A stretch of 64,000 nt of DNA from a virus: positions 24,134-88,133 of the IMG/VR virus record IMGVR_UViG_3300011113_000581, one strand, 5' to 3'. Both the position numbers and the translations under genes were made by a program. Shown here piece after piece: positions 6,691 through 7,144 of this stretch. Every line of letters begins with the position of its first letter. Position 1 is the stretch's first letter. The notes under the pieces were generated by a model that saw only the letters and a program-made list of their open reading frames with translations, had not been told where the DNA came from and made no database searches.

Positions 6691-6719
6691 ATCCTGGCTT
6701 GAGCAACCAGGATTTTTTT
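6691..6719 (+). terminator. intrinsic terminator
   Basis: ATCCTGG/CCAGGAT stem followed by a T run. Confidence 0.7.
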
Positions 6720-6727
6720 GTTATAAT
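6699..6727 (+). promoter_or_regulatory. sigma70-type promoter for the ncRNA
   Basis: TTGAGC-17 nt-TATAAT with TG extended -10. Confidence 0.7.
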
Positions 6728-6733
6728 TTGAAA

Positions 6734-7070
6734 GATAGAGGCCAGGTCCCTGTGCGCGTTGGGCACATAGCTCAGAAGGCGACACACCTGGTCCATCTAT
6801 CCGTCACTCATCACGTACGAGAGGGTTGCGCTTGTTGGCCTTACTGACAAGCCCAGTGGGGATGGGACCCGCAAACCGCCCCTACCGCTCTGCCGGTAGG
6901 GTTCCAGCTCAGATACGCTTTATCGTTTTTGAGTCTGTGGTTCCCGCTCTGCACGTACTGGAAATTTCTGGTCGAAGCATCGGGCTAAGTCCTGTGTTTG
7001 CAGGCCGGGGATTTGATCACCCCCGCGTTGACCCCCTATGCCTCTCAACGATGCACAAACCTGGGGGCAC
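6734..7070 (+). ncRNA. large structured non-coding RNA (family unassigned)
   Basis: GC-rich, about ten helices visible, begins just after a promoter, no convincing ORF. Confidence 0.65.
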
Positions 7071-7072
7071 AC

Positions 7073-7144
7073 CGACCGTTAGTCTATTGGTAAGGACACC
7101 CCGACAAGGGAGTTGGATAGCTGGTTCGATTCCAGCCCGGTCGA
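7073..7144 (+). tRNA. tRNA-like element with non-canonical anticodon arm (isotype undetermined)
   Basis: Acceptor CGACCG/CGGTCG, D arm GTCT-ATTGGTAA-GGAC, T arm GCTGG-TTCGATT-CCAGC; anticodon arm abnormal. Confidence 0.65.

Follow-up and report, generated by a model that had tools for sequence, protein, structure and literature searches.

What does a promoter-driven, helix-dense RNA that runs directly into a tRNA-like element do in a phage genome? This question is raised by positions 6691-7144 of a 64,000-nt stretch of viral DNA (positions 24,134 to 88,133 of the IMG/VR record IMGVR_UViG_3300011113_000581), which is called the window below. The phage record comprises 88,133 bp and is 100% complete according to CheckV, and its nearest named relative is S-EIVl, a freshwater Synechococcus phage. 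A first-pass annotation, made from the letters alone, had proposed one multi-domain non-coding RNA here, joined to a tRNA-like 3' element. We found that the tract carries a known antitoxin RNA motif near its 3' end and, at its 5' end, a hairpin matching the leader of a cyanobacterial toxin clade, and we consider it probable on balance that the locus makes a polyvalent decoy, which imitates AbiF antitoxin RNAs and is set free by processing of the tRNA type.

An abiF RNA motif without its toxin gene

The module directly ahead of the tRNA-like element, at 7032-7068 (+), matched the abiF RNA motif (Rfam RF03085) over the full model (1-37) with 49.7 bits, against a gathering score of 37, and is the one abiF RNA in the phage record. 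It consists of an outer stem (7032-7037/7062-7067), an inner stem (UGC/GCA) and the loop CUCUCAACGAU, which is identical to the family consensus. The outer stem forms 5 of 6 pairs with one U-U, and among the relatives, which were gathered by BLAST and by pattern scans of IMG/VR, the closest (L086) has a compensatory inner stem, AGC/GCU. A strong hit to a known family had been named by the first-pass annotation as what would speak against its proposal; such a hit was obtained for this 37-nt 3' module only, and the tract apart from it matched no Rfam family, even at E <= 10.

In bacteria, abiF RNA is encoded in cis with AbiF, an abortive-infection toxin (Pfam Abi_2, a HEPN RNase) and proposed ancestor of Cas13, for which it serves as the antitoxin; the RNA binds AbiF and can neutralise it in trans as well (PMC12373285; PMC13064643). 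That AbiF is a toxin restrained by a small RNA was shown only in 2025. The phage copy departs from the cis context of the family, as it is followed by the tRNA-like element and a converging gene, not by Abi_2, and no Abi_2 gene was matched anywhere in the complete phage record. Since the phage holds no toxin gene, the RNA is most likely made to disarm an AbiF defence of the host.

The same motif is common in viruses. An exact match to its 15-nt loop core is carried by more than 117 viral contigs of IMG/VR, and most of the unique copies (80 of 88) form at least 5 of the 6 outer-stem pairs, with 39 different 5' strands. Among 93 viral copies with at least 900 nt downstream, 71 have no open reading frame (ORF) of at least 180 aa starting within 300 nt, while the others precede 22 distinct ORFs, only one of which is Abi_2; these counts come from a Pfam scan, as tblastn with cyanobacterial AbiF proteins was too insensitive. 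The motif is therefore almost always an orphan in viruses. For 17 of 78 viral copies, ARAGORN found a tRNA starting within 12 nt, which is tRNA-Arg in 10 of the 17. Many copies stand at the head of large tRNA arrays, in a recurrent arrangement of module, 4-9 nt and tRNA, and some have their own terminator and no tRNA. Besides, one viral contig (L158, ~4060-4100, -) carries the loop variant CUCUUAACAAUGC, as found ahead of Abi_2 in small AT-rich cyanobacterial genomes (L290, L292, L293 and L294, ~1339-1377), which hints that phage copies track the variants of host lineages.

Matching leaders in cyanobacterial AbiF loci

Abi_2 was found above the Pfam cut-off in 32 of 401 sampled Cyanobacteriota genomes. 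In the small AT-rich genomes, an abiF motif detectable by Rfam lies between the promoter and the toxin gene. One order of small, GC-rich (rich in guanine and cytosine) genomes has two further types of AbiF leader, a "stretched" abiF motif (ACACCCCCC-A-GGC-CUCUG-hairpin-CAU-GCC-CAAACA-GGGGGG-UCAC) and a second one, here called H1-type after the corresponding module of the phage.

Module H1 of the phage (6734-6797, +) reads GAUAGAG, a 7-8-bp stem (6740-6747/6786-6793), CCCUG, an inner hairpin, CAC, the closing strand of the stem and CCAUC. A pattern scan of viral contigs that did not demand pairing gave 88 unique hits, whose distribution is bimodal: 48 form 7 of 7 stem pairs and one forms 6 of 7, and the remainder form 1-5, as chance predicts. 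In an alignment of 56 members, compensatory changes were found in 7 of the 8 outer pairs; the rows had been filtered for pairing beforehand, so that the percentage paired is not independent evidence, while the diversity of the stems is. In many phages, as in the AbiF loci of hosts, H1 begins 6-8 nt after a -10 box, and in viral contigs it is often directly adjacent to a tRNA. Rfam 15 describes no family of this leader type.

The likeness between H1 and the host leader was noticed by eye and then followed by pattern. The host pattern gave 12 hits in 11 of the same 401 genomes; four are true H1 copies, each the only one in its genome, and all four serve as leader in a single Abi_2 clade. One more leader of this type, with CCUCUG replacing CCCCUG, came from a search with the AbiF protein. 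Phage H1 and these leaders (L311, L312, L314, L326, L441) agree in all invariant unpaired nucleotides (GAUAGAG, CCCUG, CAC, CCAUC); in both, a 7-bp stem encloses an inner hairpin, and both lie just after a promoter. The stem sequences differ by covariation, the inner hairpin of the phage is longer, and no toxin ORF comes after the phage copy. In short, phage H1 has the sequence and structure of an H1-type leader but not its place ahead of Abi_2. The intact protein of the clade matches the "Abi family protein" of PDB 8VZ6 (E = 1.7e-25). BLASTN of the whole RNA of the window against cyanobacterial Abi_2 loci gave no significant match, and related phage RNAs matched those loci in the 24-nt abiF core only.

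Of the five genomes with H1-type AbiF loci, two have an intact toxin gene. In the other three (L439/L326 in genome G623, L442/L314 in G610, L441 in G533), promoter and leader are intact while the toxin gene is frameshifted, truncated after 64 codons or missing, in one case each; judging from these sequences, the antitoxin RNA seems to outlive the toxin at such host loci.

Two other phage modules recall the stretched leader. Module H2 (6880-6901, +) forms a hairpin in which 8 bp, CCCTACCG/CGGTAGGG, enclose a conserved CUCUGC-type loop; its seven unique copies all form 7 of 7 flanking pairs with four different stems, and its 9-mer CUCUGCCGG is common to the stretched abiF leaders of hosts. Module P (6940-6986, +) has the layout GUUCCCG-CUCUG-[insert]-CAU-CGGGCU with a stem at 6943-6946/6981-6984, and by eye this order of stem, CUCUG, insert, CAU and stem resembles the core of the stretched leaders. 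P is conserved in L236, L239, L330, L391, L454 and L473 and in the loose ends of runs X17 and X20, recurs ahead of differing modules in other contigs, and is mostly missing in L086. H1, P and the core of the stretched motif might share one plan (stem, C-Y-C-U-G, hairpin, C-A-Y, stem), of which the canonical motif looks like the compact form. P also holds a conserved near-palindrome, GGAAAUUUC(C/U), at 6960-6969, with equivalents in L123, L158 and L236; it is too short for a normal hairpin loop and could therefore be a kissing site or a protein-binding site.

Discrete modules and a tRNA-like 3' element

How is this RNA built and delimited? Transcription is predicted to start at about G6734, behind a sigma-70-type promoter at 6699-6727 (+; TTGAGC-17-TATAAT with a TG extension, 10 of 12 matches), whose position is the same in L086, S-EIVl and L123. 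As the first-pass annotation had noticed, this near-consensus promoter overlaps a terminator, a hairpin at 6692-6719 (+; TCCTGG-CTTGAGCAA-CCAGGA with a T7 run) that appears to close the upstream operon of small basic proteins. Hairpin and T-run are kept in L086, L207, L232 and L399; the terminator scan tool missed the hairpin because its loop has 9 nt. In L123, an extra ORF of ~0.75 kb (~3040-3780, -) is inserted between the basic-protein operon and the RNA locus, which indicates that the locus keeps its own promoter.

The GC content is 54-55% in 6700-7100 and ~35-40% on either side, and ~500 nt without a conserved ORF separate the stop at 6641 from the converging gene at 7149-7967. The GC profile and the local helices agree with the GC-rich, helix-dense tract described at first reading, and the promoter likewise upholds a promoter-driven, non-coding locus. 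The stop-free ORF at 6826-7152 (108 aa) has no Pfam match and is not kept in L086, where its start falls in a missing segment of 73 nt and the longest plus-strand ORF has 61 aa. Contigs from RNA libraries of two studies lie on the locus, X17 corresponding to 6673-7135 (a relative) and X18 to 6770-6964, and they give a weak hint of expression. All the read runs consist of contigs, from which 5' and 3' ends and expression levels are not readable, and flanking genes left bare in two RNA libraries are not evidence.

The relatives show how the tract is put together. L086 shares 96% identity through the promoter and the first hairpin and is without 6801-6873 and ~6937-6981; the relative's contig in run X17 skips exactly 6800-6878; in L123 and S-EIVl, module M comes first, then ~170 nt and then a degenerate abiF-like motif; L029, L007, L083, L207, L232, L236 and others hold other subsets of modules. 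Because the pieces occur in such differing combinations, the tract is not one integrated fold. As far as sequence comparison can tell, it is a chain of discrete modules that are gained, lost and reordered among relatives, not one large RNA.

Of the RNA of ~340 nt proposed ahead of the tRNA-like element, the length thus stands and the single fold gives way to modules. Most of the local helices were found again, namely 6740-6747/6786-6793 (enclosing TGTGC/GCACA), 6830-6835/6847-6852, CCCTACCG/CGGTAGGG of H2, 6908-6913/6928-6933, CCTG/CAGG and GGGG/CCCC, and several of them covary in relatives. The distant pairings fared worse. For the long-range helix 6864-6873/6936-6945, a local hairpin that relatives conserve, GTGGG-GATGGGA-CCCGC (6856-6872), is the better explanation; the pseudoknots TTCCAG/CTGGAA and GTTTG/CAAAC are not kept in relatives, L086 being without one partner; CCCCC/GGGGG is merely the outer stem of the abiF motif; and CGTTGA/TCAACG and GCATCG/CGATGC would require the conserved abiF loop.

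Three modules complete the chain. Module B (6798-6878, +), which holds the hairpins GCTTGT/ACAAGC (6830-6835/6847-6852) and GTGGG-GATGGGA-CCCGC, is an optional insert: L029 and L248 have it, L086 and the relative's contig in X17 do not, and L454, L470, L473 and L497 hold related copies whose stems covary. Module H3 (6908-6933, +; CTCAGA...TTTGAG) is a variable hairpin; relatives have a hairpin at this position too, the sequence of which is not conserved. Module M (6987-7024, +) forms two hairpins, AAGUCCUG-loop-CAGG-CC-GGGG-AUUUGAUCA-CCCC, and has no Rfam match; covariation of its second stem was seen both in cyanophage contigs and in the copies of proteobacterial prophages.

An M-like motif (AAGUCCUG-loop-CAGGCC-stem-GUUGAUC-stem-GAU), which belongs to no Rfam family, was also observed in prophage-like places of Pseudomonas, Castellaniella and other bacteria (L245, 4297-4341, -; L258, 6335-6379; L280, 954-998, -; L251, L265, L275, L254, L259, L260). 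Its contexts include positions after an antiterminator Q gene, beside aqpZ, ahead of a capsid gene and ahead of a tRNA-like piece. A bacterial source for M was also considered and given up, as a genome-wide pattern scan gave mostly chance hits and three phage contigs binned into metagenome-assembled genomes; none of the Pseudomonas and Castellaniella prophage-like relatives from that scan lies beside Abi_2.

Behind the abiF motif and a spacer of 4 nt (ACAC, 7069-7072, +) comes the tRNA-like element (7073-7144, +), with an acceptor stem at 7073-7078/7138-7143, a D stem at 7082-7085/7094-7097 and a T arm at 7120-7136. ARAGORN calls it with an abnormal anticodon loop and a 2-nt "anticodon". A true tRNA would have a 5-bp anticodon stem and a 7-nt loop; here the stem has 4 bp (7099-7102/7108-7110+7112) with a bulged A7111, and the loop is the pentaloop GACAA (7103-7107). 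With this stem and pentaloop the element cannot decode. It has no match to the tRNA family (RF00005) at E <= 10 and reaches 21.3 against 47 for tRNA-Sec. The only true tRNA that ARAGORN found in the window lies 17 kb from the locus. The D arm (GUCUA..GG..AGGACA) looks like that of tRNA-Glu or tRNA-Asp.

When 23 distinct homologues were aligned, 99.5% of the cells of the cloverleaf were paired and 12 of 19 pairs had compensatory changes; the shortened anticodon stem covaries in 3 of its 4 pairs, and the pentaloop (G/A)ACAA is almost invariant. A covarying cloverleaf with a near-invariant pentaloop argues for a selected tRNA mimic, not a decayed gene. Homologues are unannotated in the GenBank records examined, namely those of S-PM2 (L003, 2494-2565), S-RIM8 (L005, 2494-2565), S-SZBM1 (L002, 2494-2565) and S-CREM1 (L004, 1939-2010), and copies of T4-like marine cyanophages share up to 93% identity with that of this S-EIVl-like phage. 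What precedes the element differs from phage to phage (the abiF motif, H1, a tRNA or other hairpins), which suggests that the element is itself a movable module. The first-pass annotation had placed a tRNA-like element directly after the structured RNA, and the same arrangement was seen in many phages. Because the two abut, the 3' end of the upstream RNA could be set by RNase P; judging from the 4-9 nt that separate motif and tRNA in other phages, the predicted cut lies at 7072/7073.

Three consecutive small lysine-rich proteins (96, 69 and 56 aa; 5942-6641) are encoded directly upstream of the locus, the first of which has a weak match to DUF5872 below the cut-off. They had been suggested as protein partners of the RNA, but what we found is synteny in one lineage: similar genes precede the locus in L123, L207 and L232 and not in other module-carrying phages, and the same RNA modules occur in tRNA arrays of T4-like cyanophages without the basic-peptide genes. 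The converging ORF (7149-7967, -; 272 aa) has weak sub-threshold matches to atypical kinase families (PI3_PI4_kinase, ABC1), and a search for relatives by means of its protein found one only.

A probable decoy for AbiF, rival explanations and known systems

How could these parts work together? The promoter at 6699-6727 would drive one non-coding precursor of ~410 nt, made of independently folded modules. In it, H1 would copy the leader of the cyanobacterial AbiF clade and 7032-7068, a canonical abiF motif, would copy the abiF RNA, while H2 and P with their CUCUG-type cores may be further antitoxin variants. The tRNA-like element would recruit tRNA-processing enzymes, and the RNase P cut would free the abiF hairpin with a defined 3' end. 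If host transcription is shut off during infection, the labile antitoxin RNA of the host would decay and AbiF would be set free; the phage copies could then hold AbiF bound and inactive, so that infection proceeds.

Several observations weigh against such a decoy. The abiF model of Rfam misses H1, H2 and P, and B, H3, M and the tRNA-like element, over half of the RNA, are without a link to AbiF. The link between H1 and AbiF rests on one host clade, with the toxin gene intact in only 2 of the 5 copies. The compact abiF form was not found in the order that has the H1-type leaders (likely Cyanobium-type hosts). In S-EIVl and L123 the abiF-like motif is degenerate, with no Rfam match even at E <= 1 in L123 (the one scanned), which means that the motif may be under weak constraint in this lineage. 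As for expression, the RNA-library contigs could be DNA carry-over, and one of them begins 60 nt upstream of the predicted start.

The modules without a link to AbiF invite wider readings. It is conceivable, though we hold it only tentatively, that the single transcript is a polyvalent anti-defence array in which several AbiF antitoxin mimics (H1, abiF and the CUCUG-core modules H2 and P) are joined with M, B and the anticodon-less tRNA, each directed against another RNA-binding defence, with exchange of cassettes and cutting by tRNA-processing enzymes. A still broader sponge, for which AbiF is one target or a minor one, while M, B and the anticodon-less tRNA each target a different host RNA-binding defence or RNA-cutting enzyme (for example, the tRNA mimic would decoy tRNA-targeting nucleases), seems rather unlikely to us. 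It would fit the independent conservation and covariation of M, B and the tRNA-like element, in other combinations and other phage groups, the selection on the GACAA pentaloop and mini stem, and the presence of M in proteobacterial prophages; but none of the three stands beside a toxin gene in the bacterial loci examined, and none has a known partner. Equally doubtful is a view that gives the modules no role against AbiF: they would be leaders or spacers in phage operons of the tRNA type, serving as 5' stabilising hairpins or helping RNase P or RNase E with processing and folding, and AbiF loci would have captured a common phage RNA. H1 and abiF do very often stand directly behind a promoter and directly ahead of the tRNA that opens an array, viral contigs as a rule carry them as orphans, and transfer between phage and host may have run either way. 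A stabilising hairpin, however, would need no invariant 11-nt loop, modules occur also with their own terminator and no tRNA, and the loop matches bacterial abiF RNAs to the nucleotide, whose sole shown activity is to bind and neutralise AbiF.

The single large RNA suggested at first reading, an RNA like GOLLD, ROOL or manA that has its own function and is integrated by long-range tertiary contacts, is very improbable. Large phage RNAs do lie beside tRNAs (PMC5737381), the tract is dense in helices, and its minimum free energy is moderately better than that of shuffled sequences (z = -2.19; 1 of 100 shuffles equally good). The Rfam models of GOLLD, ROOL and manA, however, match nothing here, either at the gathering threshold or with E <= 10 as the limit, and relatives do not conserve the long-range pairs that were proposed. 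Among these relatives, B and most of P can be missing, M and abiF can be set apart by an insert of ~170 nt, and the order of the modules can change. Readings as transfer-messenger RNA, RNase P RNA, group I intron or riboswitch were dropped, as neither ARAGORN nor Rfam gave such a match. It is scarcely credible that the tract consists of decayed tRNA genes or codes for the 108-aa ORF: tRNA-like bits such as TAGCTCAGAAGG in H1 and the stop-free frame might suggest so, but the modules are conserved with compensatory changes across distant phages, and the frame has neither a Pfam match nor a start in L086.

Should the locus be such a decoy for AbiF, a function would be at hand for some structured RNAs of phage tRNA clusters that have lacked an explanation, H1 would represent a second, undescribed class of AbiF leader RNA, and co-expression of a cyanobacterial AbiF with the phage RNA would offer a simple test system. 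If orphan copies of this kind are widespread in phages, they would amount to a common RNA-based counter-defence, of a sort that anti-defence screens centred on proteins miss. The family of anticodon-less tRNAs, which extends from S-PM2 to S-EIVl-like phages, is a question separate from the AbiF decoy. In the literature searched, we found no description of AbiF antitoxin decoys borne by phages, of the H1 leader class or of the GACAA tRNA mimic.

In conclusion, the locus can be set beside three known systems. Like the members of RF03085, such as RCd22 of C. difficile phi027 and the non-coding RNA in the Prevotellaceae AbiF structure (PDB 8VZ6), the phage module has two nested stems, an invariant loop and a 3' internal loop, and, as in RCd22, more than one motif-like unit would be carried on one predicted transcript. 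The phage copy differs from the known abiF RNAs in what comes after it, a tRNA-like element where they have a terminator and a toxin ORF, and in being embedded in a longer chain of unrelated modules. In the tRNA array of the cyanophage S-CREM1 (manA, wcaG, abiF), where the abiF motif was annotated without a functional reading, it likewise stands 4-5 nt before a tRNA-shaped gene among structured RNAs (PMC9964418). Different from S-CREM1, the downstream element here is an anticodon-less mimic, and the locus has its own promoter and lies outside any tRNA array. The third system comes from phage PhiTE, whose pseudo-ToxI imitates ToxI, a type III antitoxin RNA. By means of this phage-encoded RNA the phage escapes ToxIN, the abortive-infection RNase being kept inactive. 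The decoy proposed here would follow this logic, with a phage carrying an orphan copy of a host antitoxin RNA, while the target would be the HEPN protein AbiF instead of ToxN and release would come from tRNA processing, not from the toxin. The units are also heterogeneous, without the tandem direct repeats of one 34-50-nt unit that are the hallmark of ToxI (no tandem repeat reached a score of at least 30 in 6600-7250). We class the locus as a mimic of antitoxin RNAs, polyvalent and built of modules, to which a tRNA mimic is joined.

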